Positions 7,699 through 48,844 are shown, counted from the stretch's first letter. The stretch: DNA of 64,000 nucleotides from Candidatus Thorarchaeota archaeon (GCA_048882325.1 JBHLRS010000002.1:64001-128000); one strand, 5' to 3'. The notes: generated by a model not told the origin, from the sequence alone. Translations and numbers: made by a program.

Positions 7699-7700
7699 TA

Positions 7701-9268: not shown

Positions 9269-9283
9269 GGGAGGCATTGGAAT

Positions 9284-14965: not shown

Positions 14966-14969
14966 AAAA

Positions 14970-15854: not shown

Positions 15855-15890
15855 GCAATGCCTTTATTGCAGAGGGATTGACCTGAATGA

Positions 15891-16133
15891 GTGGTGACAA
15901 TGAGCTTTAATAAAATGCCATCGTCGTTTTATTGGACCTTGGTTTCATTTGCAATCTTCTTTGCTTGTCTCAATATCTATATCTTGACACTCTGGTTGTC
16001 ACATCCATTTGCAAGTCCACTCTGGCTAATTGGCGCATTAGTAGGAGCATTACTTTTAGTATATTCAATCAGGTTGGTCAGAATACAACAAACAGAGCTT
16101 ATAGAGAATAAACAACTGGAGTCTTCAGATTAA
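15891..16133 (+). CDS. Small 2-TM membrane protein
   Basis: 80-aa ORF with two hydrophobic helices, co-oriented with its neighbours. Confidence 0.6.
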   Translation: MVTMSFNKMPSSFYWTLVSFAIFFACLNIYILTLWLSHPFASPLWLIGALVGALLLVYSIRLVRIQQTELIENKQLESSD

Positions 16134-16150
16134 CAAATGAGGATTGATAA

Positions 16151-16795
16151 ATGAAGAAACTGGCAATCGGTCTTGTTTTACTTGTAATCGGAGGTGTTAT
16201 CGCAGTTGTTCTCTTTCAACAGAATGATTTCATTCAAGACACGTTTGACACAGAAGGACGCTATGATGCAAGTGTTCTCGACAATATGGGAGTCATTTAC
16301 TCTAACAGGTCTGACATCAGATCGTTTAATGAGGCCTACAGCGAATCAGATAACTGTCCATGGGGATTTGTCCATAACGGAATTGATTATGCCTATTTCA
16401 ATGACTCAGATGTCATCGCGGCTGCACCTGGATTAGTAGAGCGGATCGAATTGAATGATTGGGGTCCAGAAGCACAACATCGTTATACGATCATGGTGGA
16501 GATCAGATTCAATTCATCAGTAAGTTTAATCTATAATTTTGAACCTTGGACAAATTCTACCAATGAACAAACACAGCAGGTCGAGATGTTCAACTTCGAG
16601 GTAGGAACATGGGTGGATAAAGGTGATGTGATTGCGAAATTCCTGGTTGCAGGGGAAGGGGCGCACATTCACTTTGGAGTAGTCCAAGATGATGAATGGA
16701 GAGATCCCACTCTATATCTGTCAACCGAAGGGTATAATGAACTCCTAGGCATGATTCATGAATTTCAGCCGACCTGGGAGATTAGCTATCCATAA
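16151..16795 (+). CDS. Secreted or membrane-anchored M23 (LytM)-like metallopeptidase
   Basis: N-terminal signal/anchor, HNGIDY (HxxxD), VIAAAPGLV, VGTWVDKGDVIA, AHIHFGV (HxH), DPTLYL. Confidence 0.8.
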   Translation: MKKLAIGLVLLVIGGVIAVVLFQQNDFIQDTFDTEGRYDASVLDNMGVIYSNRSDIRSFNEAYSESDNCPWGFVHNGIDYAYFNDSDVIAAAPGLVERIELNDWGPEAQHRYTIMVEIRFNSSVSLIYNFEPWTNSTNEQTQQVEMFNFEVGTWVDKGDVIAKFLVAGEGAHIHFGVVQDDEWRDPTLYLSTEGYNELLGMIHEFQPTWEISYP

Positions 16796-16820
16796 ACCTG
16801 GATAGCTCAATCTCATTAAG

Positions 16821-33267: not shown

Positions 33268-34434
33268 TTGGAGCCAGAAAGTCACAGTGACATGGAACGG
33301 ACTGAGTTAGGTCCAGCAGAAGACACTCCAACTGGCTGGTTTCAATTGGGTTGTGCTCTTGCAAAACAAGGGAATCAAGTTGAAGCTGAGAGAGCTTTGA
33401 AGATTGCAGTTGACTTGCAAGAGAAATATCCAATTGCATGGACAGTTCTGAGTGCTGTTCTACTTTCACAAGCCCGAGAAACAGACGCTGAGAAAGCAGG
33501 CAAGATGGCATTGGAACAAGCTGAAGACCTAAAGATCACCTGGCCTAAACTACGAAGCATCATTCTCAATCATGCGATTCTGAAAGGCAAGGATTGGAAA
33601 AGTCCTAGGAGGATCCTATGCAATTCTTCTGATTCAACTGAATGGGCCAGCATCCTCTCTCAGTTAAGTGAAACGAACGATGAGCTGTCTAGTGAAATCG
33701 ATATCAAACCAGAAGAAGTTGATGATTCTCTGACTGCTGTAAAACCGATTGAAGAAATTGATAGTGAAGAAATGAGGGCGTGGGGATCTGATGCATTAAA
33801 GCAAACGGAAGATGAGAATGCACAAATTTGGTTTGGTACTGCGCGAATCCATATGGTTGCGGGTAGGTTTGACCAAGCTGAAAAAGCGTTCATGAGAGGA
33901 CTGAAAATAGATCCTGATAATGGTGAAGCATTACTTAGAGTTGGAACACTTCTCATGAAGAGAGGACTCTATAATAAGGCAGAGGGTTTGCTTGTACGAG
34001 CGGTTGATCTTTTGCAACAGAGCGCAGATGCTAGATTTCAATTAGCACTCTGTCTTCAGGCTCAAGAAAGATGGGATGAATCGAAAGACTTGTTGAAGAT
34101 TGCTAGTCAGAAAAATCCAAAAGATGAAGAAATTTGGGTCAAACTTGGTGAGGCGGATTTCTTCTGCAGCCGATATGAAGATGCCAGTAGGAGTTTCCTC
34201 AGAGCCCTTAGGATAATTCCCAGTCATCAAGAAGCGTTATTCTACCTCGGTCGGTGCATGGAGTATCGTGGGAATAATAGTCATGCTCTTCGTGTGTATA
34301 GAAAGCTGCTCTATCTTGAACCAGAGGATTCAGAGATGCTTGAGGAAATGTCAAAATCATTCCATCGTCTTGGTGAGCAGAATTCAGCAAACCGCGCAAA
34401 AGCTCTAGCAGCTAAACGACGTAGGTCTACATAA
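33268..34434 (+). CDS. Tetratricopeptide repeat protein
   Basis: Multiple TPR-like units (WFQLG.A..QG...EAE, AEKAF.RGLKIDP, WVKLGEA, ALFYLG). Confidence 0.88.
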   Translation: MEPESHSDMERTELGPAEDTPTGWFQLGCALAKQGNQVEAERALKIAVDLQEKYPIAWTVLSAVLLSQARETDAEKAGKMALEQAEDLKITWPKLRSIILNHAILKGKDWKSPRRILCNSSDSTEWASILSQLSETNDELSSEIDIKPEEVDDSLTAVKPIEEIDSEEMRAWGSDALKQTEDENAQIWFGTARIHMVAGRFDQAEKAFMRGLKIDPDNGEALLRVGTLLMKRGLYNKAEGLLVRAVDLLQQSADARFQLALCLQAQERWDESKDLLKIASQKNPKDEEIWVKLGEADFFCSRYEDASRSFLRALRIIPSHQEALFYLGRCMEYRGNNSHALRVYRKLLYLEPEDSEMLEEMSKSFHRLGEQNSANRAKALAAKRRRST

Positions 34435-35158
34435 TGAACTCGTCCAATGCAGGTAGAACCATACCAGCTTTTCCTGTGATGTGGAGGTCTACAACTCCAG
34501 TCAACATGGTCCGTTCAACATTGACTTCAATTACCTTACCACCTCGTTGCTTCACAATTAATGGGAAAGAGGCAGCAGGTTGCACATATCCAGAGGTGCC
34601 GATGACAATAATGACATCAGCCCGATCAAGTTCTGTGTAGACTCGCTGCATGATGTGGGAGTCAAGAGGCTCACCAAACCAAACAACATCAGGACGTAGG
34701 TTATTTCCACATTGTGGACAATGAGGAATACCTTTTGCTGGCTGATGCAAACGCTCACGATGATCACAAGAAACACACTTCAATGCCCAAATGTCACCAT
34801 GCACCTCGTAGACGTTCATTGATCCAGCTCTTATGTGAAGTCCATCTACATTCTGTGTAATCACTGATTCGAGAACGCCTCTTGTCTCCCATATCGCTAA
34901 GGTTTCATGGGCAGGATTTGGTTGGCAGTTTCCAATTAGTCCTTGTCGCCATGTGTACCACTCCCAAACGAGAGCAGGATTTCTGGCAAAAGCAATAGGT
35001 GTTGCAAGTTCCATTGCATTATAGTTTCGCCACAATCCATCTTCTCCGCGGAAGGTAGGGATATTTGATTCCCTAGAGATTCCAGCTCCAGTGAGTGCTA
35101 CAAAGTATTTTGCATCCATGATTACTTGTGCGACCTCTTTGAGAAGAGTTTCCTTCAT
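34427..35158 (-). CDS. cobB: NAD-dependent protein deacylase (sirtuin, class III)
   Basis: LTGAGISRES.IPTFRG, PNPAH, TQNVDGLH, HG, two CxxC, RPDVVWFGE, IGTS..VQPAA. Confidence 0.95.
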   Translation of the reverse strand: MKETLLKEVAQVIMDAKYFVALTGAGISRESNIPTFRGEDGLWRNYNAMELATPIAFARNPALVWEWYTWRQGLIGNCQPNPAHETLAIWETRGVLESVITQNVDGLHIRAGSMNVYEVHGDIWALKCVSCDHRERLHQPAKGIPHCPQCGNNLRPDVVWFGEPLDSHIMQRVYTELDRADVIIVIGTSGYVQPAASFPLIVKQRGGKVIEVNVERTMLTGVVDLHITGKAGMVLPALDEFIM

Positions 35159-35867: not shown

Positions 35868-36605
35868 TTGCCATTGACAGGAGAAATCAAAGTCAGTATC
35901 AAAGATGCACTCGCCACTGTCACGATTTCAAGACCAGATAAGTTGAATTCAGTGACAAAAGAGATGCTCACCGATTTTCATGATCAGGTTTCGCAGCTCA
36001 TCAACAATCCAAGCATCAGGGTAATTGTCTTCAACGGTGAAGGAAACCGTGCATTCAGTGCAGGGTTTGACCTTGAGATGGTCATGGGTTTGGAGGGTAA
36101 AGAGGCCACTGAGTTCTTCAAACTGCTTGAGCGCACAATGCGAGTCATCCGAGAGAATCGAAATTGCCTGACAATAGCTTCGGTGAATGGATATGCCATT
36201 GGGTTTGGTGCGATGGCAGTCCTTGCTTGTGACTTCAGGATTTTTTCTGACACTGCAGTCTTCAAACTACCGGAAGTTGAGTTGGGTGTTTTTCCAGGTG
36301 CTGGAGCTTCATCAAACCTGCTGCATCTGGTTGGACCATCACGAGCAAAAGATATCGTACTGACAAGTCGGAATGTTTCCGCAAAGGAAGCACATGAGAT
36401 AGGACTTGCAGACATGTTAGTGAGTCCAGATGAATTGGAGAAGTGTACAAATGAGTATGTTGAAGCCCTCTTGAACAAAGACCCTACAATCTTGATTAGA
36501 TCAAAGACAATGATAGATGGCATGACTGGAAAGGATGTTTCAGAAGCCAGTGAGGTGGAAACTGCATATCTCGATGAATGGCTTCGGGAGAGAGAAGAAT
36601 CCTAA
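35868..36605 (+). CDS. Enoyl-CoA hydratase/isomerase (crotonase) family
   Basis: RPDKLN, AFSAGFDL, IASVNGYAIGFG, ACDFRI, LPEVELG..PGAG. Confidence 0.92.
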   Translation: MPLTGEIKVSIKDALATVTISRPDKLNSVTKEMLTDFHDQVSQLINNPSIRVIVFNGEGNRAFSAGFDLEMVMGLEGKEATEFFKLLERTMRVIRENRNCLTIASVNGYAIGFGAMAVLACDFRIFSDTAVFKLPEVELGVFPGAGASSNLLHLVGPSRAKDIVLTSRNVSAKEAHEIGLADMLVSPDELEKCTNEYVEALLNKDPTILIRSKTMIDGMTGKDVSEASEVETAYLDEWLREREES

Positions 36606-36730
36606 AAAATATCCAAAGGGCAATGCGACATAGATTTGTTTCATAGATAATCTACTTGGATAATCGTTGAATGTTTATTCGTCAGCCTTAATTAGGAAAA
36701 GTATCACAAAAAGGACCTCTGTTCAATGAG

Positions 36731-37714
36731 ATGATTTCAATGGCAAAAACAGCTGTTATCGCAATTGGTGGAAACTCGCTGATAAAAGACAAATCACACA
36801 AGACAGTACCTGATCAATATGCAGCCACCGCAGAAACGTGTAAACATATTGCAGACATGATCCAACAAGGTTGGAACGTCGTGATTACGTCAGGAAATGG
36901 ACCTCAGGTCGGTTTTATTTTGAGAAGGTCTGAATTGGCGGAACACGAACTTCACCCCGTGCCACTTGACTATTGTGGCGCAGATACTCAAGGTGCTATT
37001 GGGTATATGATTCAAAGAGCACTCTACAACGAGTTTCACAAGAGGGGTATGAATAGACATGTGGCATCACTTGTGACTCAGGTACGAGTTTCGAAAGACG
37101 ATCCTGCTTTCCAGAATCCTGCAAAACCAATAGGGTCTTTTATGGAAGAGAAAGAAGCCAAGCAAAGAATGGAAAAAGAAGGCTGGCAAATAAAGGAAGA
37201 TTCTGGCAGAGGATGGAGACGAGTTGTGCCATCACCGATACCTAAGGAGATAGTTGAACTCCCAGGAATTAAAGCTCTACTGAATGATGACATTGTGGTA
37301 TACGCAGTCGGAGGTGGAGGCATCCCGGTTGTAGCAAATGAGGCAGGTGAGCTTGAAGGCATCGCTGCAGTTATCGACAAGGACAGAGCATCCAGTCTAC
37401 TAGCAACAGATTTGGATGCAGATATCCTACTGATTTCGACTGCTGTAGAACAGGTCTATCTCAATTTTGGCAAGGAGAATCAAGAAGCTATTGATAAGAT
37501 GGACCATATTGAAGCTCAGAGGTACATTGAAGCGGGTCATTTCACCCCAGGAAGTATGTTGCCAAAGATTGAGGCATGTATTCAGTTCATTAAGAACGGA
37601 GGTGAAATGGCGATTATCACCGATCCACCCAATATCACACGAGCATTGAACGGAGAGACTGGAACTCGAATAGTTGCAGGATTTGCAGTTCCACCACCTC
37701 CAGAGAGAAGATGA
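36731..37714 (+). CDS. arcC: Carbamate kinase
   Basis: AIGGNSL, GNGPQVG, ADTQGAIGY, NPAKPIG, RRVVPSP, GGGGIPV, VIDKD, GSMLPK. Start may be 36740. Confidence 0.95.
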   Translation: MISMAKTAVIAIGGNSLIKDKSHKTVPDQYAATAETCKHIADMIQQGWNVVITSGNGPQVGFILRRSELAEHELHPVPLDYCGADTQGAIGYMIQRALYNEFHKRGMNRHVASLVTQVRVSKDDPAFQNPAKPIGSFMEEKEAKQRMEKEGWQIKEDSGRGWRRVVPSPIPKEIVELPGIKALLNDDIVVYAVGGGGIPVVANEAGELEGIAAVIDKDRASSLLATDLDADILLISTAVEQVYLNFGKENQEAIDKMDHIEAQRYIEAGHFTPGSMLPKIEACIQFIKNGGEMAIITDPPNITRALNGETGTRIVAGFAVPPPPERR

Positions 37715-37720
37715 TGAAAA

Positions 37721-38101
37721 ATGAAACTTGAAGGAGTATCAACAGATAACGCACCAAAGGCTATAGGACCGTATTCACAAGGGATCAAAGCGAATGGATT
37801 CGTCTTTTGCTCAGGACAGATTCCATTTAATCCAAACACAGGAGAGCTTGTGACTGGGTCGATCACTGACCAAACAAAGCAATCACTCTCCAATGTGAAA
37901 GGAGTCATAGAAGCAGCTGGATCTTCAATGGAGAAAATTGTGAAGTGTACTGTTTTTCTCAAGAATATGGATGATTTCGCTGAGATGAATGCAGAGTATG
38001 CCAAATGGTTTAGTGACCCACCACCTGCGCGAGCTGCAGTTGAGGTTGCTCGATTACCGAGAGATGTTGGTATTGAGATAGAAGCAATCGCACTTCTCTA
38101 A
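37721..38101 (+). CDS. ridA: RidA/YjgF family enamine deaminase
   Basis: [35 protein letters not shown]...IEIEAIA. Confidence 0.93.
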
Positions 38102-38310
38102 CATATCCTATAGGGGATTATAACAAGAGCAATGCAACATGGTAGTATCAGCTCTAGCTGATGCCATTCACAGGGGAGTTTATGGATAAACGCCGCTGCG
38201 TCACCACACTTGGTCATTTAGTACATAATGAAAAGTAAATATGCGGTCAGAGCAAGCTTTTTACCTATACATTTTAGCGCAGGTTCTAGAATTACTTGGA
38301 GTACTGACTG

Positions 38311-38940
38311 TTGGATCCAACGAGTCTTGACAGTAGAGAGGTAGAATCCCTTGTGGACCAAGCCTCTTCACTCATTGAAAGACATCAATATGATGAAGCC
38401 ATGAACAAGCTTCGTCGAGGTCTCGCTGTAGACCCAACTAATGTTCGCGCATTAGAAAATCTAGTTATCTGTAATTTGGAACTTGGAAAGCCGAAGATGG
38501 CAATCCATGCATTAAACAGTCTTCTCCAAATAGAACCAACATCATCAGTACGCTGGGGAGACAAAGGGTACATCCATCTTTTACTGAATGAAAACTCAGA
38601 GGGTATCGGTGCACTTAGAGAGAGTCTCAAACTAGAGCCACGTGATGTCCGTAGGTGGGAACTTTTAGCAACAGCACTCATTACTGAAGAGAGATGGGAG
38701 GAGGCTGTGGATGCTTTGGAAAAGTCTCTGAGTCTAGACCCTGCATCTGCCACAACTTGGTATAATCTTGCAGTCTGTTATCTCTACTTTGAAGACTTCG
38801 CGTCAGCCTTGCAGGCTGCTGAATACGCTGTATCACTGGATCCATCTCTTGAAGAGTTTGCTGCAAGTTGGATGGATCTAATCGATGATGATTACCTGAT
38901 AGAAGACTATCCCTCAATTGATGGAATTGCAGGTTCATAG
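38311..38940 (+). CDS. Tetratricopeptide repeat protein
   Basis: About 5 TPR units (YDEAM..L..GLAVDP, WGDKG, WEEAVDALEKSLSLDP, WYNLAVCY). Confidence 0.88.
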   Translation: MDPTSLDSREVESLVDQASSLIERHQYDEAMNKLRRGLAVDPTNVRALENLVICNLELGKPKMAIHALNSLLQIEPTSSVRWGDKGYIHLLLNENSEGIGALRESLKLEPRDVRRWELLATALITEERWEEAVDALEKSLSLDPASATTWYNLAVCYLYFEDFASALQAAEYAVSLDPSLEEFAASWMDLIDDDYLIEDYPSIDGIAGS

Positions 38941-38942
38941 AA

Positions 38943-40823
38943 CTACTTAATCTTGTCAATTACTGCTTGGATTTCTTTAGATGATTTATTCATCCTAAAT
39001 GACTTCGCTGTTTCGAGAGCTTGTTCGAGAGCAGAGATGATTCGGCTCTTCTCTAGCTCCAATTCAGTTTCATCTTCGATGGTCTTCAGCGCTTCAATCT
39101 TCTTTGGCATCACGCTAAGTAGTCCATCGATTGCAGCCTGAGCCTCCTCTTTTGATGAAAACGATGCATCATGTTCTGCATCATAAGATGTCACTATTCT
39201 ATCTATCTGACTATACAGGCGGCGATACTCACCTAAGGCTCCTGATAGGATCTTCTGGACTTCACCTTCAGGTTCAGCTGCTTCCAAAGCGATTGATAAC
39301 TTCTCCATGGCTCCTTCAAGAAACTGCTTTCTTTCAGGGAGCTTTGTTCGGCGGCGCTCCATCCAACGCCATTCATTGGAAATCTGGCGTGTCAATGCAA
39401 GAGCTTGGTTGATGGTTTCTCTGAATTTGTCAAATTTTGACATAGCTTCATTGAGATCATATTCAAGAGTATCGACAACATGTGTGAGTTGGTAACTAAG
39501 CATGTCACTAGCCTGAGCCTCAGCGAGAACTTTGCTTTCCTTGATTATACGCCCTGCAGAGCTCCATAGACGTTCGACATCTTCAGAATTGCGGTCAGTT
39601 CTCTTCCGCACATCGAGCTCTTCAGATAACTGACGGATCTCATGTCCAATTGCTTGAAGCTCAGCAATCTTTGCCTTGAGCAGAGCTTTGCCCAGTCGAG
39701 TATTGAGCTCATCTGTCAATAGTTGTCTTTCTTCAGGAACCTCAAGTAGTGCATGGGTGTTATCGATTAGAAGCTGCAGAGCATTCTCATACGCGAGTAC
39801 AGCCTCATGGAAGAGTCCTTCCTGATAATGAACATCTGCCTTCTTCTCCAATTCAAGTGCTCCTTCCAATACATCATATGGTGATGTCTTGAGAAGGCTG
39901 TCGGTCAAAACAGGAGGTGTGTCTGTGCAGATATCAAGAGGTTGACCAGACGTAGTCAAGCGAATTATAGTGATTCCATCTTGGGTCGCGACATAGAGAA
40001 GGTCATGGTCTGCTTTGACCCATTCGATTTTCTGTCCATTAAGAGGTATTACACCAACCTCTTCACCCCGTTTCAAATCCCAGATAGTGAGTAAACCGGG
40101 AGACAAAGCAGCCACAAGATAATAGCTACTTGCCCATATTGAGGACACTGGGTTAGAGCTATCTGACTCCAAAGTACGGACCAAGCCCCATTCCACCCGG
40201 TCATAGACTGCAATCTCCCCTGTTGAATTACCTACCAGAACAAACTCAGCGTTTCCAGAGATTATTCCACCTCTTCCTTTCTTGTCCAATCTAGCTAGCT
40301 CCGAAGGTGCAGTATCACGGTCTTTCAACCATACTCGTGGTTCCTCTTTCTTTGCGCTTGTACAAATTATTTTGTCATCCGACCAAAGACTAGTAAGATC
40401 TGATTTATGGAGCTGCCAACTTGAGGTTTCATGAGTGTCTTTTTGAATGGACACAAGTCTACCTTCTCTCGCTCCAACGTAGAAGTAATCACTATGCAGA
40501 GTTGATGTCAGGGCCTGATAACTCAGTTCAAACCACCCAGTCATACCCCAGGTTTCTTTTTTCCAAACATAGATTCTACGCTCACAAGTAGCAAATACCT
40601 GTGTATCATCAACATCAACAATTAGAGGGGGAGTATCAGTTTCGCCTAGTTCTGCAATCAGTTGCCAATCAGTCTTTGACCATACTCGGACTCTTTGATC
40701 GCGACATGCAGCATAGAGAAAGTTCTCATCATATGTGATATCAACTGCAGGAGCCTCTATGATAGTTATAACTTCGTGACTAAGAGGCATGGCATCATTA
40801 GTGCCTAAAGCGCCTTTATCCAT
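38943..40823 (-). CDS. WD40/beta-propeller protein with a C-terminal alpha-helical region
   Basis: Repeats ending RVWSK, YVWKK, RVWLK, AVYDR, TIWDL over the first ~290 aa, then amphipathic helices to the C-terminus. Confidence 0.8.
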   Translation of the reverse strand: MDKGALGTNDAMPLSHEVITIIEAPAVDITYDENFLYAACRDQRVRVWSKTDWQLIAELGETDTPPLIVDVDDTQVFATCERRIYVWKKETWGMTGWFELSYQALTSTLHSDYFYVGAREGRLVSIQKDTHETSSWQLHKSDLTSLWSDDKIICTSAKKEEPRVWLKDRDTAPSELARLDKKGRGGIISGNAEFVLVGNSTGEIAVYDRVEWGLVRTLESDSSNPVSSIWASSYYLVAALSPGLLTIWDLKRGEEVGVIPLNGQKIEWVKADHDLLYVATQDGITIIRLTTSGQPLDICTDTPPVLTDSLLKTSPYDVLEGALELEKKADVHYQEGLFHEAVLAYENALQLLIDNTHALLEVPEERQLLTDELNTRLGKALLKAKIAELQAIGHEIRQLSEELDVRKRTDRNSEDVERLWSSAGRIIKESKVLAEAQASDMLSYQLTHVVDTLEYDLNEAMSKFDKFRETINQALALTRQISNEWRWMERRRTKLPERKQFLEGAMEKLSIALEAAEPEGEVQKILSGALGEYRRLYSQIDRIVTSYDAEHDASFSSKEEAQAAIDGLLSVMPKKIEALKTIEDETELELEKSRIISALEQALETAKSFRMNKSSKEIQAVIDKIK

Positions 40824-41034
40824 AATTTCTCCCCATGAGATTCAGCAGGTTGTATTCAAGGTTTTTGGAGTCCTTAAGGGTGTTTCTTTCACGGTCAGAA
40901 ACGTCTGAAATAGCCGGAAAATGCATTTTAGAAACAAGCAATACATAGTAAAATCGTTGAAAAGGGAGGACCCACACAGAAAGAACTTAAGACATCCACC
41001 ACGAAAATAGCCATACTAGACGGAGGCAGGCATC

Positions 41035-43725
41035 TTGGACACCAGCGGATGGAGACGAGAATTAGACAAACTCGCTGAACTAAAAGGAATCCTAGTTTCA
41101 GTAAATCCTGCGATGGAGGAACAGGCGGACCGTCAGGTGCGTCAGCTATATGACATCTTTGCAAACTTGACTAAGATGGATAATGACCTAGCCACAGCAG
41201 GATTTATGAAAAAGAGAAAAGTTCAAGCTCAGGTCGAAAAGACAGCCAATGATCTTGAAACCGACTTCATGAGAGTGACTCGAGATTTTGCAGAGTATTT
41301 CCGAAAGGAACACAAAGATACTCTAGCAATAGCTCCTAAGATACAAGCTCTCAAACCCAAAGAAGTTCAAGGAATATCCACACTGAATTTTCCGGGTATT
41401 GGAGCAGGAGATCTCAAGGACTTTGAGAAGCTGCACGAATTTGCAAAGGCTTTCTCACAGCTATATCTTGTCATTCATGAAGATGTTGCCAGAGATGTTA
41501 AATCAACCTTAGATGAGAACAAGGCTACCGTTGACACCTACGAGCGTCATATTACGATTGACAAGAGTGAGGTTTCAACTACTGTGTCAAACGATGATGT
41601 CGCGGGGTTGTCGCTTCGAGATCTAATCATTCTGAACGACAAACTTCAGAGTGACAGAGAATTTCTTGATGGAAGGAAAGATGAAGTAACCCAACTACTT
41701 AGTTCATCACTGGTTGGCTCAGTCGAGTCCCTGCAGGCATCTGTAGAGACCACAGCTAGATTGGGTCTTGAATTACCAATGGAACTTTCACAGGAACTTA
41801 GACTGATTGCCAGGGATGCCTCCAAGGCAAACACGCTGACTGCACTTGTTGCCCTTGAGAATCAGCTACACACTGCACAGATCAAGGTAGCAAATGCACT
41901 CCGTGACAAGATTGTTAACATTAAACATGAGGTAACTACAAAGATTGTCGAAGGTGGTATCCCAACTACAGCTGATGTCATCCCAACACCACCAAATGTA
42001 AGTGTTGAAGGAGACCAAATTGCACCGCTCTTGTCTAGCTATCAGCGTATGGTTGAGTGGCAAGGACAAGTGAGGATTGCTCTCAGAGAGCGATTATTCG
42101 AACTCCTGGATGATGTTGAGAAAGCGACAGAAGCTGCAGACGATGCAGGTATTACAGACGTTGTTGCAGTCCGTCAATTCATCGCAGAATCCAAGAAAGC
42201 TCTGAAGACAGAAGATATTGATGGCATGGTGAGAGTCTACCTCCAAGCCAAAGCGATGGATGATGAGTACCGCAAGAATATCACCGAGAGTATTCGGAAC
42301 TACCTCTCTAGATTCAACGAACTTGCAACATCAGCAGATAGAGTTCTGGACCATGCTCAACTGAGTAAAAAAGCTCCGAAGGTCGAAGAGCTTGAAGGTG
42401 GTATTGTCTACCTGCTTGGATCACTACAGAGTCTTCGCGGAGCAGTTGAGAGTGGAGTCGCAACATTTCGTGAGGCTTGTCAACAAGAGATTGACGCAAT
42501 AGTGCATGATCTACAAACTGTCAAGCCAGCATATGCGGAGATATTCATGCCTATAATCGTCGAGCTAGATGAGGGTTCAAACAGAATCCAGGCCATGGAT
42601 GATTTCTCAGAGATTAAGTCTGAAATGCGATCTATCAAGGATGGGATTCTCGTAAAGGCACAAGATGCGCTTGAAAACCTACGATACCGACTTGGTGTAA
42701 AGATCAGACTAGCAGCTGCGAAGCTGATGGGTGCAGGAGTGGAGATTCCGCCAGAAGCACAGGAAGCTATCAGTGAGCTGAACAGCGTAGGTGTAGCAGC
42801 AGACAATGTGTTCAGCTTACCCGCTATCGCACGAAAGATGGTCGAAATCTATGAGAAGAAGATCCAAGACAAAATCATTGAGAAACTGGGTGTCGAGGTT
42901 GATTCACTTATGACTAGTCTTGAGCGGGCTAGTAGTATTGGTGTCAAGCTCGGAAAAGAGCTGAAGATGCTTAGTGGTCTCAAGAACAAACCTCCAGTAG
43001 AGCTTGAAGAGGCAGCTGATGCGTTCGATAAACTTCAGAATCTGACAACATCTCCCAATGTTCACAAGAAAATCAGAGAGCGAGTGGATGAAGCTTACGT
43101 GCAGATCAAAGGAGCACTTTCATTGTTTGAAGAACAGGGTATGTCTGAGTTCGTCGAGCGTCTGAAGGTCCTCATTGATCAAGTACCAGCTAAACTTGAA
43201 ACTGATTCTCCACATGTGAATGAAGCACTTGATGTGTGTCTCACACTAGCAAACATTCAGGAAGAGATGTTGCAGATGATCAAGAGCATGGCTAGTAAGA
43301 GTGGAGAAACTCATGAAGTTGAGCTCAAGAAGAAAAGCCAATACTACTCAACAATCGAGAGAGTAATTGAGAAGCATCCAAAGGATTTCAGCAAGATCGT
43401 GTATGATGTAGCAATGATGAAGGAACTAGAAGAGGGTCTCACTGAAGCTTCCGATTTGGATGTGGCTATTGCTAATTTCCACAAACTTGGAGATATGAGG
43501 AAAGAATGGCTTGACAAAGCAGTTTCAATGGATGATTGGCACAAGTCACTTCGAATGTTCATGACTGGCTTTAGCCCAGCTGACAAGCCAGATGTACGTG
43601 ACAAGTTCATTGATGATGCAATAAGGAAAATAAGAGAGACCTATAGTCGAGAGGACATCAGATCGTACCTCAGCTGGGCTATCAAAGAAAGCGCTCAGGC
43701 TTTGGTCGATTCAAGAACGAAATAG
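41035..43725 (+). CDS. Large all-alpha / coiled-coil protein (896 aa)
   Basis: GGAGG RBS plus TTG start; E/K/L/A-rich amphipathic helices throughout; no TM segment or catalytic motif seen. Confidence 0.8.
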   Translation: MDTSGWRRELDKLAELKGILVSVNPAMEEQADRQVRQLYDIFANLTKMDNDLATAGFMKKRKVQAQVEKTANDLETDFMRVTRDFAEYFRKEHKDTLAIAPKIQALKPKEVQGISTLNFPGIGAGDLKDFEKLHEFAKAFSQLYLVIHEDVARDVKSTLDENKATVDTYERHITIDKSEVSTTVSNDDVAGLSLRDLIILNDKLQSDREFLDGRKDEVTQLLSSSLVGSVESLQASVETTARLGLELPMELSQELRLIARDASKANTLTALVALENQLHTAQIKVANALRDKIVNIKHEVTTKIVEGGIPTTADVIPTPPNVSVEGDQIAPLLSSYQRMVEWQGQVRIALRERLFELLDDVEKATEAADDAGITDVVAVRQFIAESKKALKTEDIDGMVRVYLQAKAMDDEYRKNITESIRNYLSRFNELATSADRVLDHAQLSKKAPKVEELEGGIVYLLGSLQSLRGAVESGVATFREACQQEIDAIVHDLQTVKPAYAEIFMPIIVELDEGSNRIQAMDDFSEIKSEMRSIKDGILVKAQDALENLRYRLGVKIRLAAAKLMGAGVEIPPEAQEAISELNSVGVAADNVFSLPAIARKMVEIYEKKIQDKIIEKLGVEVDSLMTSLERASSIGVKLGKELKMLSGLKNKPPVELEEAADAFDKLQNLTTSPNVHKKIRERVDEAYVQIKGALSLFEEQGMSEFVERLKVLIDQVPAKLETDSPHVNEALDVCLTLANIQEEMLQMIKSMASKSGETHEVELKKKSQYYSTIERVIEKHPKDFSKIVYDVAMMKELEEGLTEASDLDVAIANFHKLGDMRKEWLDKAVSMDDWHKSLRMFMTGFSPADKPDVRDKFIDDAIRKIRETYSREDIRSYLSWAIKESAQALVDSRTK

Positions 43726-43737
43726 GAGTAACATACA

Positions 43738-45132
43738 ATGTTCGGAAGCAGTCCCCCCAAAGCTCCCATTGAGGATGATACAACAAAAGCAGCAGAAGTC
43801 TTCGCCATCGGAATTGGTGAGTGTGGTTCAAACATAGTCGGTTCTTACCTTCAGACTAGTAGAGATAAGAAACTGCCATCAAGAGTCAGAGGTTACTTGC
43901 TCATTAACACGGATCGAGCAGACCTTACCAAGGTGCGACAGAAATATGGCATTCCAAAAGAACACACTCTCCTCTATGGTGCAAGCGAGATTGGTGTCGG
44001 TGGTCGTTTCATGGATGGGTATAATGCCATCATGGAGTCCAAGGACATCATCTTCGATCAGCTCGGAAACCTAGGATTCGAGGGTGTTTCAGGATTTTGT
44101 ATCTTCACTAGCCTAGGTGGAGGTACTGGTTGTGGAGGAACACCTGCACTCATTGAGCTCTTGAAACAGAGATTCCAAGAAGAAGAAGGTCGTAGGATCT
44201 TCGTTTATGTTGTCGGAATCTTACCATTCGAAGGGCAATCCAGCGAGGCCCTGAACTCAATCTGGGCTGTTTCAAAACTACTCAGAGCTCAGCTCCAAGA
44301 ACGAGGAGCAGACCTTACTATTCTTCTCTCAAACAGGACAATGCTCAAGAGAATACTTCAATGGCGGAGAGGGGATACTGTAGACTATCTCCAGAGGGAG
44401 CTTGAGGTCGACATAGCTGACATAGACTCAATTGAAACAATGGTTCCATCAACACTTGAGGAAAGTTCAGCAGCAGATACTAGGACCGAACAAGCTTTCG
44501 TTGAACTGGTCAATCCGCTGGCACTGGATGTTGTGGAAGCAATGCTCTCACCCGGTGTATGGGAAAAATCAAAGGATGTCTTTCCAACAACTGACCTCGC
44601 AGACTACGCTAGAAAACTGGATCCCGTAGTAGTTCCAGCCCTCTATACGGATATTGGCTTGATTCCTGATGCAGGAAGTATGCCTAAACAGCTAAGGACA
44701 ATGATTGACTACGCTGTGAAGGAGTGCTCCTATGCTGATGTTGGTGAAGAGCCTAATGCTGAGAGTGTTTATTATGTGCTCTCTGGGCCAAGACATGTAG
44801 CTAAAGCAGAATACGGTATGCACGTCAAGGAATCATTAGACAAGTTCATTGCGCCAGGTGCAGCGATTACACCATGCTATGTGCAATATCATGATCAAGA
44901 TGACTCGAATACAAACCTACTCCTTCTACTCGGTTTACCAAAGATTCCAGAACTTGTGCAAATCATTAACGAAGCTACTCAGCTTGTTAACTTGCACAGT
45001 GGTGCCTCGCCTTTGAAGCAGGGATGGTTCATGAGATCGAAGGGTACTACCCGGAAGGAACTGGTCGATGCAATCAACGACTTTCGAGAGTTGTTCAGCT
45101 ATTACATGACGCCTGGTGACACAATGGAATAG
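43738..45132 (+). CDS. Divergent tubulin/FtsZ-superfamily GTPase
   Basis: GIGECGSN (T1), INTD (T2), GVGG (T3), SLGGGTGCGG (T4 signature), ILPFEG (T5), ALNS, LSN, TTDLADY (T7), LLLLLG C-terminal strand. Confidence 0.92.
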   Translation: MFGSSPPKAPIEDDTTKAAEVFAIGIGECGSNIVGSYLQTSRDKKLPSRVRGYLLINTDRADLTKVRQKYGIPKEHTLLYGASEIGVGGRFMDGYNAIMESKDIIFDQLGNLGFEGVSGFCIFTSLGGGTGCGGTPALIELLKQRFQEEEGRRIFVYVVGILPFEGQSSEALNSIWAVSKLLRAQLQERGADLTILLSNRTMLKRILQWRRGDTVDYLQRELEVDIADIDSIETMVPSTLEESSAADTRTEQAFVELVNPLALDVVEAMLSPGVWEKSKDVFPTTDLADYARKLDPVVVPALYTDIGLIPDAGSMPKQLRTMIDYAVKECSYADVGEEPNAESVYYVLSGPRHVAKAEYGMHVKESLDKFIAPGAAITPCYVQYHDQDDSNTNLLLLLGLPKIPELVQIINEATQLVNLHSGASPLKQGWFMRSKGTTRKELVDAINDFRELFSYYMTPGDTME

Positions 45133-45148
45133 AATCGGTGGTGACAGA

Positions 45149-46216
45149 TTGTCGGACTCCTCATCATTTCACTACGAAGACCTCATTGATAGACTTCTTC
45201 TTATAGTCACACTGAATTCAACTTTAATCCATTTCCTCCTGAGCTCACAGGTGGAGGAATCAATTGATCCAGACAGAGTGGATTCGCTCACTCAAGGTCT
45301 ACTTAGAACGCGAAAATGGATGGAAGAAGCCACCACGATGAAGGGCATTCCGCCTTCCACTCAGAATATCATGAGTCTCATTGTGAAGCGTCTTTCGCAG
45401 GTTGAGAGTCTTCTACCCAAACTATCAAACAAAGCAAAACAAATCGAATCCAGATCAGCAGCGCAGGAGATTCTTTCCTTGCTTGATGGGAAAGAAGCCC
45501 CATCAGGAACTCCAGCCCCCTCAGGAACAGCTGCACAGACCACTGAAACGGATCTAGTTCCTCTAGTTGGTGGCGAACAACCCAAATCCGTGGAACCTTA
45601 TCGAAAAGTCGATGTTGAAGATGACCAGTTTGGTCTGATTGGTCAAAGTCAGCGATTGATCCAACAATACTCAAAGAGATGTCATATCCTACTTCCGACC
45701 TTTTGGCTGGAGTCTTTACGAGAAATCCATCGCTATAGATCGGAATCACCCTACCTCGGAGATGTGATTGAACTTCCAGCACGTATCTTGGTCAAGATTG
45801 CCAAAGGATTACTGACAGAGGCCCCTGGCGCTCGTCTCCTTCAGGACCTCATGAAGTCTCGCCAACAAGAGAACTACTTGAATGGGTCAGAGATGGAGAG
45901 AATCGAACGGGCAGTTGCAAAGTATTTCCAGGGTGTCGAGTCCGTACTTAAGGAACAGGAGGTAAATGTCCAGGACAAGATTCTAGAGGCACAAACAGCC
46001 TTTGATGGGTTCGGTTGGGGTGGCCCAGAGTTGGAGAAACGCATCATCAAGAGGTTGAATCAGCAGGTGGAGGAAGCTATTCAGAATGCTGAATCCGGCA
46101 CCGACCCGGCACGTCAGGTAATTCATGCTGAGATAGCCAAGTTGCTGTGCAAGCTGCAACATGCTCTCCTGGCTGAACCAAGACCTAGAGAAATTCTCGC
46201 ACAAATGAAACCTTGA
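45149..46216 (+). CDS. Hypothetical helical protein, third gene of the tubulin-like operon
   Basis: GGTGGTGA RBS plus TTG at 45149, 16 bp after the GTPase stop; two helical regions separated by a P/S/T/G linker. Confidence 0.72.
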   Translation: MSDSSSFHYEDLIDRLLLIVTLNSTLIHFLLSSQVEESIDPDRVDSLTQGLLRTRKWMEEATTMKGIPPSTQNIMSLIVKRLSQVESLLPKLSNKAKQIESRSAAQEILSLLDGKEAPSGTPAPSGTAAQTTETDLVPLVGGEQPKSVEPYRKVDVEDDQFGLIGQSQRLIQQYSKRCHILLPTFWLESLREIHRYRSESPYLGDVIELPARILVKIAKGLLTEAPGARLLQDLMKSRQQENYLNGSEMERIERAVAKYFQGVESVLKEQEVNVQDKILEAQTAFDGFGWGGPELEKRIIKRLNQQVEEAIQNAESGTDPARQVIHAEIAKLLCKLQHALLAEPRPREILAQMKP

Positions 46217-46305
46217 ATCTGTCGAGGTGTGTATAGAAGCATTCGCATGCATAGCCCATATAAGGGATGTTTACAACCCACATCAAAGACACACGAGGGT
46301 GACAG

Positions 46306-47712
46306 ATGACCGGTCTCAAGACTATGTTAAATCCCAAGGTGACTGCTGTGGTTGGTGTGTCCACAACCAATCCCTTCAGTCCTGGAAATGTGATCTTCAG
46401 AAAACTGGCCTTTGAGAATGGACTCCCCACACATCCTGTCAACCCAAAGGGAGGTACAGTTGAAGGAGTCCATGTCTATAGATCAATCACTGAAGCTCCT
46501 GATGATATCGAACTTGCTGTGATTTCAGTTCCAGCTAGATATGTCCCCGGAGTATTAACAGAATGTGGAGAGAAGAAGATTCGGTCGGTCATTGTTGTAT
46601 CAGGTGGGTTTAGTGAGGTTGGAGAATCAGGAGCTAGTCTTCAGACTGAGATTGTCGAGATAGCTAATAGATACAAGATATCGATGGTAGGTCCAAACTG
46701 CATTGGTGTGTTTGTTCCTGATGTTCTTGATACTTTCTTTCTACCCTCAGAACGTGTAGCTCGTCCTAGAAAGGGAAGTGTTGCAATAATTTCGCAAAGT
46801 GGAGGTTGGTTGATTGAGAGGCTGGAAGAATTCGCAGCAAGAGATGTAGGTATAGCCGCTGCGATATCAATAGGGAACTCTGCTCAGACTAAGGTCACAG
46901 ACTTCATCAATCTATTTGGTAAGGATGACTGTGTTCATGTGATTTTGGCCTATATTGAGGGATTTGGCAATGGTGAAGGGAGAACATTTGTCGAAGCATG
47001 CGAAAAAATTGTTCCGAAGAAGCCAGTTATTGTTTTGAAAGGAGGCGAGTCCGAAGCTGGTCATCGTGCAACTCAGAGTCATACTTCGTCTCTTGCTGGA
47101 GATAATGCTATCACAAATGCCGCATTCAATCAATTTGGTGTGATCCACGCTGTGGATGAAGATGAGGTAATGGCATTTTCTAAAGTTTTCTCGTTCAAGC
47201 CGAAACATATGTCAGGCCCAAGAATAGGGACCTTAACTGTAAGTGGTGGACATGGAGTGATAGCTAGTGATGAAGCATCACATTATGGCCTCAAAATGCC
47301 TCCATTCAGCAAGGAGCAACAAGAGCTAATGCGAGAGGTCATGACTCCAGCCTATCAAGGAATTGCATCGTTCCGCAATCCCTGTGACCTGACAGGTAGT
47401 GCATCGGATATAGATTATGAACAGGTCCTCGACAAAATGCTAGAATTCGAGACTATTGATGCTGCACTTCTTCTGTTGCTACCTTATGCACCAGGAATCT
47501 CTCTTCAAATCGGAGCGAGAGTTGCCAATGTTGCAAAACGTCACACGAAGACTGTCGTTTCCTATGTACCAGACCTCGACAAGTATGAAGTAATAATTCG
47601 AGGATTCGAGCTGAATGGTATTCCAGTAGGTGACACTATAGAAGAGGCTGTTCAAATGCTCAATGGAATCAGAATTCGGTCCAAGTATCTACAGCGCATA
47701 GGAAAGATCTAG
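46306..47712 (+). CDS. ADP-forming acyl-CoA synthetase alpha subunit (AcdA-like CoA-binding protein)
   Basis: PVNPKG, SGGFSE, GPNCIG, SQSGG, SIGN, phospho-His motif SHTSSLAG, NPCDLTG. Confidence 0.9.
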   Translation: MTGLKTMLNPKVTAVVGVSTTNPFSPGNVIFRKLAFENGLPTHPVNPKGGTVEGVHVYRSITEAPDDIELAVISVPARYVPGVLTECGEKKIRSVIVVSGGFSEVGESGASLQTEIVEIANRYKISMVGPNCIGVFVPDVLDTFFLPSERVARPRKGSVAIISQSGGWLIERLEEFAARDVGIAAAISIGNSAQTKVTDFINLFGKDDCVHVILAYIEGFGNGEGRTFVEACEKIVPKKPVIVLKGGESEAGHRATQSHTSSLAGDNAITNAAFNQFGVIHAVDEDEVMAFSKVFSFKPKHMSGPRIGTLTVSGGHGVIASDEASHYGLKMPPFSKEQQELMREVMTPAYQGIASFRNPCDLTGSASDIDYEQVLDKMLEFETIDAALLLLLPYAPGISLQIGARVANVAKRHTKTVVSYVPDLDKYEVIIRGFELNGIPVGDTIEEAVQMLNGIRIRSKYLQRIGKI

Positions 47713-47713
47713 A

Positions 47714-48844
47714 CTAGATGCCACTTGCAACTTTTTGATAGTCAATCCCAAGAGACATCAAGGATTGTACAAGCTTGCCACTCAGTATGAGTTGCTTTGA
47801 TGAAAGTTCCTCCACCTTTTGAGACCCTGTGAGATACATGGCAACACGAAGACCTTCGAGGAATCGTTCAAGTTCAACCACAACGTCTAGTGAAGATCCA
47901 TAAACCGCCTGTCTGAGAAGAGGATGAGCAATTCCAGCTGCTGTTGCTCCTAGAGCAAGTGCCTTGGCAATGTCGAGGCCATTTCTTATTCCCCCTGTAG
48001 CAATGACATCAAGTTCTGTGGAATCTAGAACCATTATAACGCTCAGCGCTGTAGGTATTCCCCAGTCCCAGAACTCAAGTCCTAGTTGGGCTTTAAGATC
48101 GTCGTCTTCCTTTTGAGCGCGGAAATATTCTACTCCAGCCCAACTAGTACCCCCAACACCACCGACATCAATCCCTACGATACCAACCTCTTCGAGCCTC
48201 TTAGCAACATCACCCGAGATCCCTGCACCTGTTTCTTTGATTATGACTGGGATGTCAACCGAGTCCACAATAGCAGCAATGCTTTCTAACGCCCCCTCAG
48301 AGTTGCAATCACCCTCTGGCTGAATTGCCTCTTGAAGAGGGTTGAGATGCACAGCTAAAATGTCAGCATCAATCATAGAAACTGCATCAGGTGCAGATGT
48401 GACATGAGTCGCACCTATGTTCGCAATGACAGGAACAGAGGGAGCTGATTCTCTCACAATCGTGAAGGTGTCTGCAAGGGACGGATCTTCAACAGCAGCT
48501 CGTTGGCTCCCGACGCCTATAGGTAAGCCCAGCTCCTCAGCTGCATTTGCTAATCGTTGATTAACGCTCTTGGTCTTTGGGTGCCCTCCAGTCATCGCTG
48601 CAATGACTAGTGGTGCGCTCGCTCGCAGTCCAAAGAAATTGATGTTTAGATCAATTCTGTCTTTATCAATCTCGGGCAATGCATTGTGAATGAAATCTAT
48701 GTCCTCAAACATTGTTGACCGCTGACACTGAACCTCTTCATCAAGGCAGATCTCGATATGTTCGATTTTTCTACGTTTTGTCATGGATGCTTCAGATACA
48801 TCATCATCAACATCGGAATCATCTAACGGCCTTCCTTCAACCAT
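47714..48844 (-). CDS. fni: Type 2 isopentenyl-diphosphate delta-isomerase
   Basis: RKIEHI, HNALPE, AMTGG, GSQR, HLNPLQE..QPEGD, KETG.G, GGTSW, WGIPT, GGIRNG. Confidence 0.95.
   Translation of the reverse strand: MVEGRPLDDSDVDDDVSEASMTKRRKIEHIEICLDEEVQCQRSTMFEDIDFIHNALPEIDKDRIDLNINFFGLRASAPLVIAAMTGGHPKTKSVNQRLANAAEELGLPIGVGSQRAAVEDPSLADTFTIVRESAPSVPVIANIGATHVTSAPDAVSMIDADILAVHLNPLQEAIQPEGDCNSEGALESIAAIVDSVDIPVIIKETGAGISGDVAKRLEEVGIVGIDVGGVGGTSWAGVEYFRAQKEDDDLKAQLGLEFWDWGIPTALSVIMVLDSTELDVIATGGIRNGLDIAKALALGATAAGIAHPLLRQAVYGSSLDVVVELERFLEGLRVAMYLTGSQKVEELSSKQLILSGKLVQSLMSLGIDYQKVASGI

Follow-up and report, generated by a model that had tools for sequence, protein, structure and literature searches.

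The window analysed here is a 64,000-nt stretch of a Candidatus Thorarchaeota archaeon genome (GCA_048882325.1, JBHLRS010000002.1:64001-128000), in which three co-oriented genes, coding for a long helical protein (gene 1, P0001), a GTPase of the tubulin/FtsZ superfamily (gene 2, P0002) and a small helical partner (gene 3, P0003), lie next to genes for a WD40-helical protein (P0004) and a TPR protein (P0005), as listed in Table 1. An earlier note on this DNA had described these five genes with gaps of 12, 16 and 211 nt and their ribosome-binding sites, all of which were confirmed: 12 nt separate gene 1 from the GTPase gene and 16 nt the GTPase gene from gene 3, while GGAGG lies 8 nt upstream of the TTG at 41035 that starts gene 1, the AGGAG upstream of the GTPase gene overlaps the gene 1 stop, and GGTGGTGA forms the ribosome-binding site upstream of the gene 3 TTG at 45149. 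The WD40-helical gene is indeed divergent from gene 1 across the 211 bp, and the TPR gene converges on it, 2 nt apart. The names carried by near-identical proteins likewise point to an Asgard archaeon of the Thorarchaeota type. GC content is even across the window, and Rfam gave zero matches in 36000-48000; a scan for bacterial-type promoters and terminators stayed at chance level.

Table 1. Genes and features of the locus; positions are counted from the first letter of the window.
Feature	Position	Strand	Description
P0005, TPR protein	38311-38940	+	209 aa; co-oriented with the triad; accessory, Thorarchaeota family only
P0004, WD40-helical	38943-40823	-	626 aa; accessory, Thorarchaeota family only
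Divergent intergenic region, WD40 gene / gene 1	40824-41034	.	211 bp; presumed promoters; sequence read directly
P0001, gene 1, rod	41035-43725	+	896 aa; ORF and translation; all-helical; first gene of the triad
P0001, three tandem helical repeats	41395-42600	+	~130 residues each; residues 121-265, 266-392, 393-522
P0001, best-conserved C-terminal segment	43507-43722	+	residues 825-896; W835, H836, I866, Y878, L879 invariant (alignment A2, 18 sequences)
P0002, gene 2, GTPase	43738-45132	+	464 aa; ORF; tubulin/FtsZ superfamily, Asg.Tub clade
P0002, T4 tubulin signature GGGTGCGG	44116-44139	+	residues 127-134; G127-G133 invariant in 18 sequences from 8 families
P0002, acidic insertion, T6-T7	44350-44505	+	residues 205-256; 13 D/E vs 5 K/R; alignment A3
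P0002, T7-type loop TTDLAD	44587-44604	+	residues 284-289; D286, D289 invariant (18 sequences)
P0003, gene 3, small helical partner	45149-46216	+	355 aa from TTG start; ORF
P0003, N-terminal three-helix region	45173-45484	+	residues 9-112; AlphaFold2 helices 9-36, 41-62, 69-112, pLDDT 65-80
P0003, disordered linker, Pro/Ser/Thr/Ala-rich	45488-45586	+	residues 114-146; pLDDT <50
P0003, globular helical C-terminal domain	45596-46213	+	residues 150-355; pLDDT >90

The middle gene product scores 71.9 bits with the Pfam family Tubulin (PF00091; cut-off 33) over profile positions 1-187 of 190, which bears out the placing of a tubulin/FtsZ-superfamily GTPase at the centre of the operon. In alignment A3, comprising 18 sequences from 8 families, T1, T4, T5, T6 and both T7 acidic residues are invariant, as is the G-box GGGTGCG, which has a Cys at the usual Ser/Thr position; the acidic insertion between T6 and T7 is present in all members and variable in sequence. 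In FtsZ and tubulin, the T7 acidic residues activate GTP hydrolysis in the adjacent subunit. The C-terminal tail carries a conserved hydrophobic ELF-x-YY motif, and in the comparisons with solved or representative proteins the N-domain alone aligns, the C-terminal half matching none of them. Comparison of the P0002 profile with the PDB ranked CetZ1, CetZ and CetZ2 as the best solved relatives, followed by tubulins; beta-tubulin, gamma-tubulin, OdinTubulin, BtubA and AtubA gave E values of 1e-6 to 6e-5 over positions ~70-200 only, and none of the 60 PDB matches listed was a chain named FtsZ only. Assignments as FtsZ (NCBIfam TIGR00065, 32.1 bits against an equivalog cut-off of 295.2) and as FtsZ-like/Tubulin_2 (PF13809, 18.4 bits against 27) were tried and rejected. 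The family is isolated, an exhaustive HMMER search over 1.84 billion representatives returning only 5 matches below 1e-30, and no longer protein containing the GTPase, such as a fusion with a partner, was found, which is a weak negative.

A CetZ-like Asgard clade, Asg.Tub, was named by Santana-Molina et al. 2023 (PMC9871819) from four sequences; their trees put it outside canonical CetZ in an unstable position, and the CetZ clade is bounded by Thermococcales CetZ according to Brown and Duggin 2023 (PMC9856176). One named Asg.Tub member, OLS26264.1 (P0117), is 51% identical to P0002 (E 5e-146), and the C-termini of a Thorarchaeales AB-25 protein, also one of the four, and of SMTZ1-83, given in supplementary file 35 of PMC9871819, are near-identical to that of P0002. 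Judged by sequence, P0002 is thus a member of Asg.Tub and the GTPase itself is not new; where it stands with respect to CetZ and tubulin was judged by its PDB profile ranks and from published trees. Named homologues are nearly all from Asgard MAGs (Thor, Borr, Baldr, Hermod, Hod/Heimdall and "Asgardarchaeia"), and the few labelled Bathyarchaeota or Thermofilum share one 90%-identity cluster with Baldrarchaeota. The earlier note had raised the case of an already described clade with the same partners: the clade does have a name, but the neighbours were reported in PMC9871819 as unknown genes, mostly with coiled coils, with no conserved partner set described and no functional conclusion drawn. 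No bench study of Asg.Tub was found in the literature searched.

The distribution of the three genes was surveyed in 151 Asgard genomes sampled from 27 families. The GTPase was found in 60 of the 151, and gene 3 and gene 1 in 61 each, in the same 8 families, which include Thor-, Borr-, Baldr-, Hermod- and Heimdall/Hod-type genomes. A synteny search had been proposed as a check, and both helical neighbours proved to be kept with the GTPase in 8 of the 8 GTPase-bearing families, P0001 orthologues directly upstream and P0003 orthologues directly downstream; the three gene trees recover the same groupings. In all 18 loci examined, save one paralogous pair, the order is gene 1 - GTPase - gene 3 on one strand, and neighbouring genes are commonly 0-50 nt apart or overlap at their stop and start codons. 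Across lineages identity falls to only 44% for the GTPase and 17-30% for the partners, yet order and spacing are still fixed, while the genes outside the triad, housekeeping or metabolic, differ between families. The matching family pattern, the order and spacing fixed over deep divergence and the congruent trees argue for functional coupling and are hard to explain otherwise. The exceptions are a duplicated rod and GTPase pair without gene 3 in Heimdall-type genomes and two genomes in which triad members are split, by 8 kb in one and by an unrelated 1202-aa gene in the other; strict adjacency is therefore not obligatory. What is new at this locus is the strictly conserved triad, undescribed in the literature searched, and what was known is the GTPase clade. 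As for a broader superfamily of such triads, the neighbours of the nearest outside tubulin-like genes, P0131 (33% identity) and P0139 (27%), gave no convincing match to the partner profiles, the best reaching 16% probability over 71 columns.

These exceptions could be taken to mean that the GTPase works alone, as euryarchaeal CetZ does in cell shape, the helical genes being co-expressed with it and acting elsewhere, with no binding to a polymer. CetZ1, CetZ and CetZ2 being its best solved relatives would fit such a role, as would the CetZ literature searched, which names no obligatory partner, and the finding that CetZ-like groups and CetZ have unrelated gene neighbourhoods (PMC9871819). An identical family-level phyletic pattern, with fixed order and spacing despite divergence and congruent trees, is nevertheless not what independently acting genes would lead one to expect, and we regard this explanation as unlikely.

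For the GTPase, identity runs at 90-97% among members of the genus, 79-89% at the family and 74% at the order level, and 44-63% in the rest of the phylum; falling in this way with reported genome kinship, it points to vertical descent. TubZ-type systems also consist of a divergent tubulin-like GTPase and small partners dedicated to it, so that a TubZRC-like DNA-partition module, or the cargo of a mobile element, has to be weighed here. Vertical descent argues against both, as do the even GC content and the chromosomal housekeeping genes that flank the triad and differ by lineage; moreover, tandem repeats or iterons are absent in 38000-46800 and neither P0001 nor P0003 matched a DNA-binding family at any E up to 10. 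Either origin is in our view very improbable.

Both partners had been described as all-helical and without transmembrane segments, and this holds: their AlphaFold2 models are all-alpha, and no 19-residue Kyte-Doolittle window reaches 1.6 in either. The model of P0001 (mean pLDDT 86, pTM 0.39) suggests an elongated shape. Its three tandem repeats were recovered by hhalign of alignment slices (probabilities 90%, 86% and 75%; E 2e-6 to 3e-5), and homologues carry lineage-specific additions, of 236 residues after residue 370 in Heimdall-type and of 150 after residue 68 in Baldr-type genomes, so that the length of the rod is modular. P0001 has no Pfam or NCBIfam family, its profile matched nothing among PDB sequences below E 0.03 and Foldseek found nothing in the PDB at E < 0.1; VIA-align, in a wide search and a second look, returned generic helical-bundle matches (Z <=10.8), below the meaningful level for helical proteins. 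Profile comparison of gene 1 with gene 3 revealed no homology.

P0003 likewise has no Pfam or NCBIfam family, and its profile found nothing among PDB sequences below E 0.5. Of 201 homologues scored, the 120 listed with a name are hypothetical proteins of Asgard MAGs, none with a Pfam domain. The protein is at its most hydrophobic in helix 1, with a Kyte-Doolittle value of 1.59, just under the membrane threshold of 1.6, and 15 of 17 homologues likewise have their 19-mer maximum in this N-terminal helix (1.19-2.24; 4 exceed 1.6); as AlphaFold2 models it, this helix may form the core of a helical bundle. The linker varies in length and sequence across the alignment, and the C-terminal domain keeps D159, P183, P226, L230, G291, E296, R298 and K354 invariant. 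Foldseek found nothing in the PDB at E < 0.1, and both VIA-align searches (wide and second look) gave generic helical bundles (Z <=9.6) over the N-terminal helices only, the C-terminal domain being barely covered. With no fold relative for either partner, the roles proposed below for them are drawn from architecture alone. Complex prediction from GTPase alignment A3 and gene 3 alignment A1 gave a score of 0.01 and a mark of 0.32, which favours neither binding nor its absence.

The layout of gene 3 recalls ZipA and the helical-repeat rod recalls EzrA, so that the triad might be a third division-related, FtsZ-like system that assists or positions the FtsZ1/FtsZ2 ring through partners like EzrA, ZipA or SepF; at the sequence level this is hinted at solely by a match to EzrA that is not significant (E 0.038; 12.7 bits, cut-off 39.6). 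The genome encodes two true FtsZ proteins elsewhere, FtsZ1 and FtsZ2 (421 and 395 bits, cut-off 295), and P0002 lies far under the FtsZ cut-off. No division, partition or translation gene neighbours the triad, in line with what had been claimed of division and partition genes, and the flanks consist of housekeeping and metabolic genes. Furthermore, the triad was not found in many of the sampled Asgard families that keep two FtsZ genes (for example 0/25 in f9 and 0/13 in f5), which indicates that division in the phylum does not depend on it. A division role is for these reasons quite unlikely.

The WD40-helical and TPR genes had been counted as part of the system. Their linkage holds inside the Thorarchaeota family (f1), the locus lacking both in other lineages; at most they are accessories, or mere neighbours, and stand outside the core system. 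In P0004, residues 1-300 form a WD40 propeller (profile against PDB, E 8e-35 to a designed WD40 and 1e-10 to Fbw7/Prp19), followed by a helical half, ~310-626. Its orthologues lie divergent beside gene 1 in most f1 genera, none being found at the locus in g17, g22, G001 or any other family. P0005 matches TPR families at E 1e-23, and f1 loci, among them that of g17, which is without the WD40 gene, have its orthologues (E ~1e-52) upstream of gene 1; P0005 was not found at the locus in f2, f6, f8, f12, f15, f16 or f22. A search of residues 300-626 of P0004 by hmmscan at E up to 10 gave weak TPR matches and no MIT, and a whole-genome search with MIT (PF04212) gave one site (27 bits), which is not P0004. 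The WD40 gene and gene 1 displayed no homology by profile comparison.

Taken as a whole, 41035-46216 is probably a single operon, passed on by vertical descent, whose products form a dedicated cytoskeletal module of Asgard archaea with a role outside division. In this module the Asg.Tub protein would bind GTP and polymerise head-to-tail into protofilaments, with hydrolysis in each subunit activated by the T7 aspartates of its neighbour. The modular rod of 900-1200 residues encoded by gene 1 would bind along or between filaments as a bundler, spacer or scaffold, docking probably via its conserved C-terminal segment, and the gene 3 protein would be an adaptor, the globular C-terminal domain of which attaches to the polymer, perhaps by way of the ELF-x-YY tail of the GTPase, while the flexible linker and the hydrophobic N-terminal helices would tie the polymer to another structure, possibly a membrane. 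A role in membrane remodelling and a relevance to the origins of endomembranes, both suggested in the earlier note, stay at the level of inference.

A more specific version is that the triad is an Asgard-specific, membrane-tethered, tubulin-like cytoskeleton in which gene 3 acts as a ZipA-like tether, its hydrophobic N-terminal helix lying in or on the membrane and its globular domain, past the flexible linker, gripping the Asg.Tub tail, and gene 1 as a modular ruler or cross-linker, repeat number setting the filament spacing, already present in the common ancestor of the Thor-, Baldr-, Hermod- and Heimdall/Hod-type lineages. We offer it as a speculation that, taken whole, is improbable; if true, it would place a prokaryotic tubulin-family polymer with dedicated "MAP-like" partners near the eukaryotic stem. 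For the dedicated module as such, the triad would constitute a third, separate tubulin-superfamily system in a host lineage that is among the closest archaeal relatives of eukaryotes, and it supplies two new protein families for annotation, the members of which are now all labelled "hypothetical". The solubility, moderate size and joint encoding of the three proteins make the role of a prokaryotic tubulin-like polymer with dedicated accessory proteins directly testable.

Several known systems resemble the triad in part. Where PMC9871819 had four Asg.Tub sequences, the present survey finds the GTPase bracketed by one and the same pair of partner families in 8 Asgard families. CetZ structures match the GTPase domain of P0002 (PDB 4b46, 4b45 and 3zid; profile E 3e-13, 2e-7 and 9e-9), and both share a Q/E-x-G-type T1 loop and a GGGTG-x-G box, whereas the C-terminal half, the 50-residue acidic insertion and the tail of P0002 are specific to the Asgard family. 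The gene for OdinTubulin, another tubulin-superfamily member from Asgard archaea, also has a gene for a helical or coiled-coil protein on either side (PMC9871819). OdinTubulin is, however, a true tubulin with neighbours unique to one genome (PMC9871819), while the triad partners are conserved across classes; the triad was not found in the Odin-type genomes searched (f3, 0/4). With FtsZ and its adaptors ZipA, EzrA and SepF the likeness is at the level of architecture: the polymer, a proposed one in the triad, is of the tubulin type and carries a conserved C-terminal peptide, the tether runs from a hydrophobic N-terminus through a flexible linker to a globular domain, and a long regulator is built of helical repeats. 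The triad partners have no sequence or fold relationship to ZipA, EzrA or SepF.

Makarova et al. 2024 (PMC10936438) described Halo_adaptin of Haloarchaea, a CetZ-like protein together with WD40/PQQ propeller "adaptin-like" proteins. That system, proposed to serve in membrane or protein sorting (PMC10936438), likewise has a non-canonical CetZ-like GTPase beside beta-propeller genes; it differs from the triad locus, which has no Vps4 or ESCRT-III genes and a WD40 gene linked in one family only. In Thorarchaeota, the WD40-helical gene faces the triad, recalling the propeller neighbours of Halo_adaptin by gene context alone.

All five open reading frames (ORFs) proposed in the earlier note were found as described, spacing included (Table). 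The rod gene P0001, the GTPase gene P0002 and the small partner gene P0003, here the triad, are separated by 12 nt and 16 nt, with a purine-rich ribosome-binding site at each of the three starts, and the WD40-helical gene P0004 lies 211 nt from P0001. The five proteins are all acidic, and in none of them (0/5) does hydropathy rise above the usual threshold for a membrane helix, in agreement with the claim that the partners lack transmembrane segments. GC content is even over the whole window, and the surroundings of the triad encode a CoA ligase, an FMN dehydrogenase, a formyltransferase, RidA and an amino-acid kinase. A pair of large neighbouring ORFs (936 and 956 aa) lies at 9284-14965 (+).

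Table. Coordinates of the genes at the triad locus (in the window) and of departures from the common arrangement (within the retrieved loci).
Feature	Position	Strand	Description
P0001	41035-43725	+	ORF, 896 aa; gene 1, rod
P0002	43738-45132	+	ORF, 464 aa; gene 2, GTPase
P0003	45149-46216	+	ORF, 355 aa from a TTG start that agrees with homologue N-termini; gene 3, small partner
P0004	38943-40823	-	ORF, 626 aa; WD40-helical
P0005	38311-38940	+	ORF, 209 aa; TPR
L027 (G157:C10:5000-19500), second rod	4560-7985		1141 aa; Heimdall-type; no gene 3 homologue detectable nearby
L027, second Asg.Tub	7997-9331		444 aa
L029 (G139:C96:83700-103000), ORF between rod and GTPase	7655-11263	-	1202 aa, unrelated; one genome
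L033 (G062:C69:3500-23000), interval between GTPase and gene 3 homologue	9475-17211		~8 kb; one Thorarchaeota genome; five ORFs of 618, 690, 587, 438 and 162 aa

P0002 scored 71.9 bits against the Pfam tubulin/FtsZ GTPase domain (cut-off 33) and 32 bits against the FtsZ equivalog model (cut-off 295), as suits the divergent tubulin/FtsZ GTPase that had been proposed; since it fails the latter cut-off and two bona fide FtsZ genes are present on other contigs of the same genome (421 and 395 bits), P0002 is a third, divergent paralogue. Among the matches listed, the nearest solved sequences were three CetZ entries, followed by tubulins, OdinTubulin, BtubA/B and AtubA, and no chain named FtsZ alone occurred in the best 60 PDB-sequence matches; alignment to solved structures was limited to the N-terminal domain. 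Near-identical relatives are labelled Thorarchaeota. That the clade is isolated in sequence space is seen from an exhaustive HMMER search against 1.84 billion representatives: 5 matches fell below 1e-30, and all weaker ones covered the GTPase domain alone.

This clade is already named, yet unstudied. It was introduced as "Asg.Tub", a novel CetZ-like group of Asgardarchaeota, by Santana-Molina et al. 2023 (PMC9871819), with four members in the supplementary alignment and an unstable position between CetZ and tubulins in their trees; of the surrounding genes they state that these are unknown and mostly coiled-coil, and nothing more. We assign P0002 to Asg.Tub because one of those members, OLS26264.1, is our P0002 homologue P0117, and because the printed C-terminal half of the Thorarchaeales AB-25 member is almost identical to P0002. 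No other paper using the name was found in the literature searched.

In an alignment of 18 sequences, the T1 loop (G-x-G-E-C/A-G-x-N), the T4 box GGGTGCG, in which Cys replaces the usual Ser/Thr, the LPF...Q and LSN motifs, and a T7-type loop (TTD286-L-A-D289) with both acidic residues are invariant or nearly so. In FtsZ and tubulin such residues serve GTP binding and polymerisation-dependent hydrolysis, and by analogy we infer that Asg.Tub may do the same. Specific to Asg.Tub are an acidic insertion of ~50 residues ahead of T7 (13 acidic vs 5 basic residues) and a conserved hydrophobic C-terminal motif, E-L-F-x-Y-Y, in which L452 and F453 are invariant or nearly so.

The conserved linkage of both helical neighbours with the GTPase was borne out when each triad protein was searched in 151 Asgard genomes of 27 families. 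P0001 and P0003 were each found in 61 genomes and P0002 in 60, in exactly the same 8 families, which by the names on the matches comprise Thor-, Borr-, Baldr-, Hermod-, Heimdall/Hod-type and "Asgardarchaeia" lineages; the few single-gene mismatches all fall in fragmented assemblies, 75-85% complete. The triad proteins were found neither in the two best-sampled other families (0/25 and 0/13 genomes) nor in Odin-type genomes. At 18 loci drawn from all eight families the triad kept to a single strand and one fixed order of rod, GTPase and small partner, with short gaps or stop/start overlaps (for example, 4 and 8 nt between genes 1 and 2, and 1-32 nt between genes 2 and 3). The flanking genes are housekeeping or metabolic and vary by family (methionine aminopeptidase, arginyl-tRNA synthetase, ThiN, amidohydrolase, transposase, Cdc48). 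The three protein trees recovered the same groupings of families, namely (f1, f2) with f12 and f16, f22, and (f15, f8) with f6, and between-class identity was 44-63% for the GTPase and 17-30% for the partners. Because of the fixed order, varying flanks and congruent trees, the triad is, on comparative grounds, a self-contained unit inherited together; this joint inheritance is the strongest evidence available here that the three genes may be functionally coupled.

As departures from this arrangement, some Heimdall-type genomes carry an extra rod and GTPase pair with no detectable third gene (L027), which looks like a lineage-specific duplication, because both second-pair genes branch beside that family's first copies. 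The ORF interrupting L029 belongs to no Pfam family and does not match the rod family by profile; the wide interval of L033 shrinks to just 377 nt in its sister genome (L018). At G150:C1:5616-6971 the frame with the GTPase match stays open for 832 aa, far exceeding gene length, and probably extends upstream across the rod gene in another frame.

Both partners lack a recognisable family: neither P0001 nor P0003 has a relative in Pfam, NCBIfam or PDB sequences, and no convincing structural relative was obtained with their models. AlphaFold2, run on an 18-sequence alignment, modelled P0001 as entirely alpha-helical; the mean pLDDT of 86 but pTM of 0.39 point to an elongated protein with confident local structure. 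Three tandem repeats of ~130 residues (121-265, 266-392 and 393-522) were detected by hhalign of profile slices at 75-90% probability. Since homologues differ by whole blocks (Heimdall-type +236 residues, Baldr-type +150), P0001 is predicted to be a modular rod, whose last ~70 residues are the best conserved. P0003 is predicted to have three helices in its N-terminal region (residues 9-112, pLDDT 65-80), joined by a disordered linker rich in Pro/Ser/Thr/Ala (114-146) to a compact C-domain (150-355, pLDDT >90) that is helical and contains eight invariant residues. Of 17 homologues, 15 have their most hydrophobic 19-mer within the N-terminal helix, and in 4 it exceeds the membrane-helix threshold; the helix may either form the core of a bundle or associate with a membrane.

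A division machine is an unlikely role for the triad, because FtsZ1 and FtsZ2 are both present besides it and many sampled Asgard families have two FtsZ genes with no triad detected. A partition system of the TubZRC type is likewise unlikely, given the lack of iterons and of any DNA-binding partner, the chromosomal context and an identity that declines as the reported relatedness of the genomes decreases. The best-supported reading is a non-division Asg.Tub filament module, in which a GTP-driven Asg.Tub protofilament would be bundled, spaced or scaffolded by the co-translated modular rod, and the small adaptor P0003 would use a flexible tether to connect it with another structure, perhaps the membrane. 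FtsZ with EzrA and ZipA, and tubulin with MAPs, follow a similar working logic, but show no homology to the triad partners.

The WD40-helical and TPR genes had also been counted as part of the system; their identity and the divergent placement of the former stood, but linkage proved confined to the Thorarchaeota family f1. P0004 consists of a WD40 propeller and, after it, a helical half; its orthologues adjoin the rod gene divergently in most genera of f1. Outside f1 the P0004 query recovered no orthologue, nor did it in genera g17 or g22 or in one genome of the genus to which the window belongs; the matches there were generic WD40 repeats elsewhere in the genome. In f1, orthologues of the TPR protein P0005 are co-oriented with the rod gene and located upstream of it, immediately so in g17; none occupies that place in the loci of other triad-bearing families. 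Both genes are thus family-level accessories or merely conserved neighbours. Pfam gave no support for an MIT-like helical half of P0004; a whole-genome MIT search matched another gene and not P0004, and relaxed hmmscan gave weak TPR matches only. About 4 kb upstream of the triad locus lie another TPR protein, larger than P0005 (388 aa, 33268-34434, +) and only remotely similar to it (E 1e-6), and a Sir2-family deacetylase (34427-35158, -).

The earlier note had allowed that the GTPase might fall in a described clade with the same described partners. The GTPase family is indeed known, as Asg.Tub, but the strictly conserved three-gene module and its two partner families were described in no paper found, and in that sense are new. 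From sequence and predicted structure, we class the triad as a putative filament system of the tubulin superfamily, equipped with accessory proteins of its own. Finding one more divergent tubulin-like system beside helical genes is by itself not very surprising; this one is widespread in the lineages nearest eukaryotes and testable at once.

Other tubulin-like genes were also encountered. P0139, a different gene of 27% identity, lies at 7001-8308 of L035 (GCA_027028455.1 JALVIY010000154.1) among unknown ORFs of 680, 222 and 648 aa; its neighbours gave no match to the triad partner profiles, and a ubiquitin-like cluster (ThiF E1, UQ_con E2, JAB, Prok-RING) adjoins it. The top PF00091 scores of the phylum sample (197 and 191 bits) belong to a pair of adjacent genes at G165:C52:9085-11038 (440 and 436 aa), probably true tubulins of the AtubA/AtubB type.
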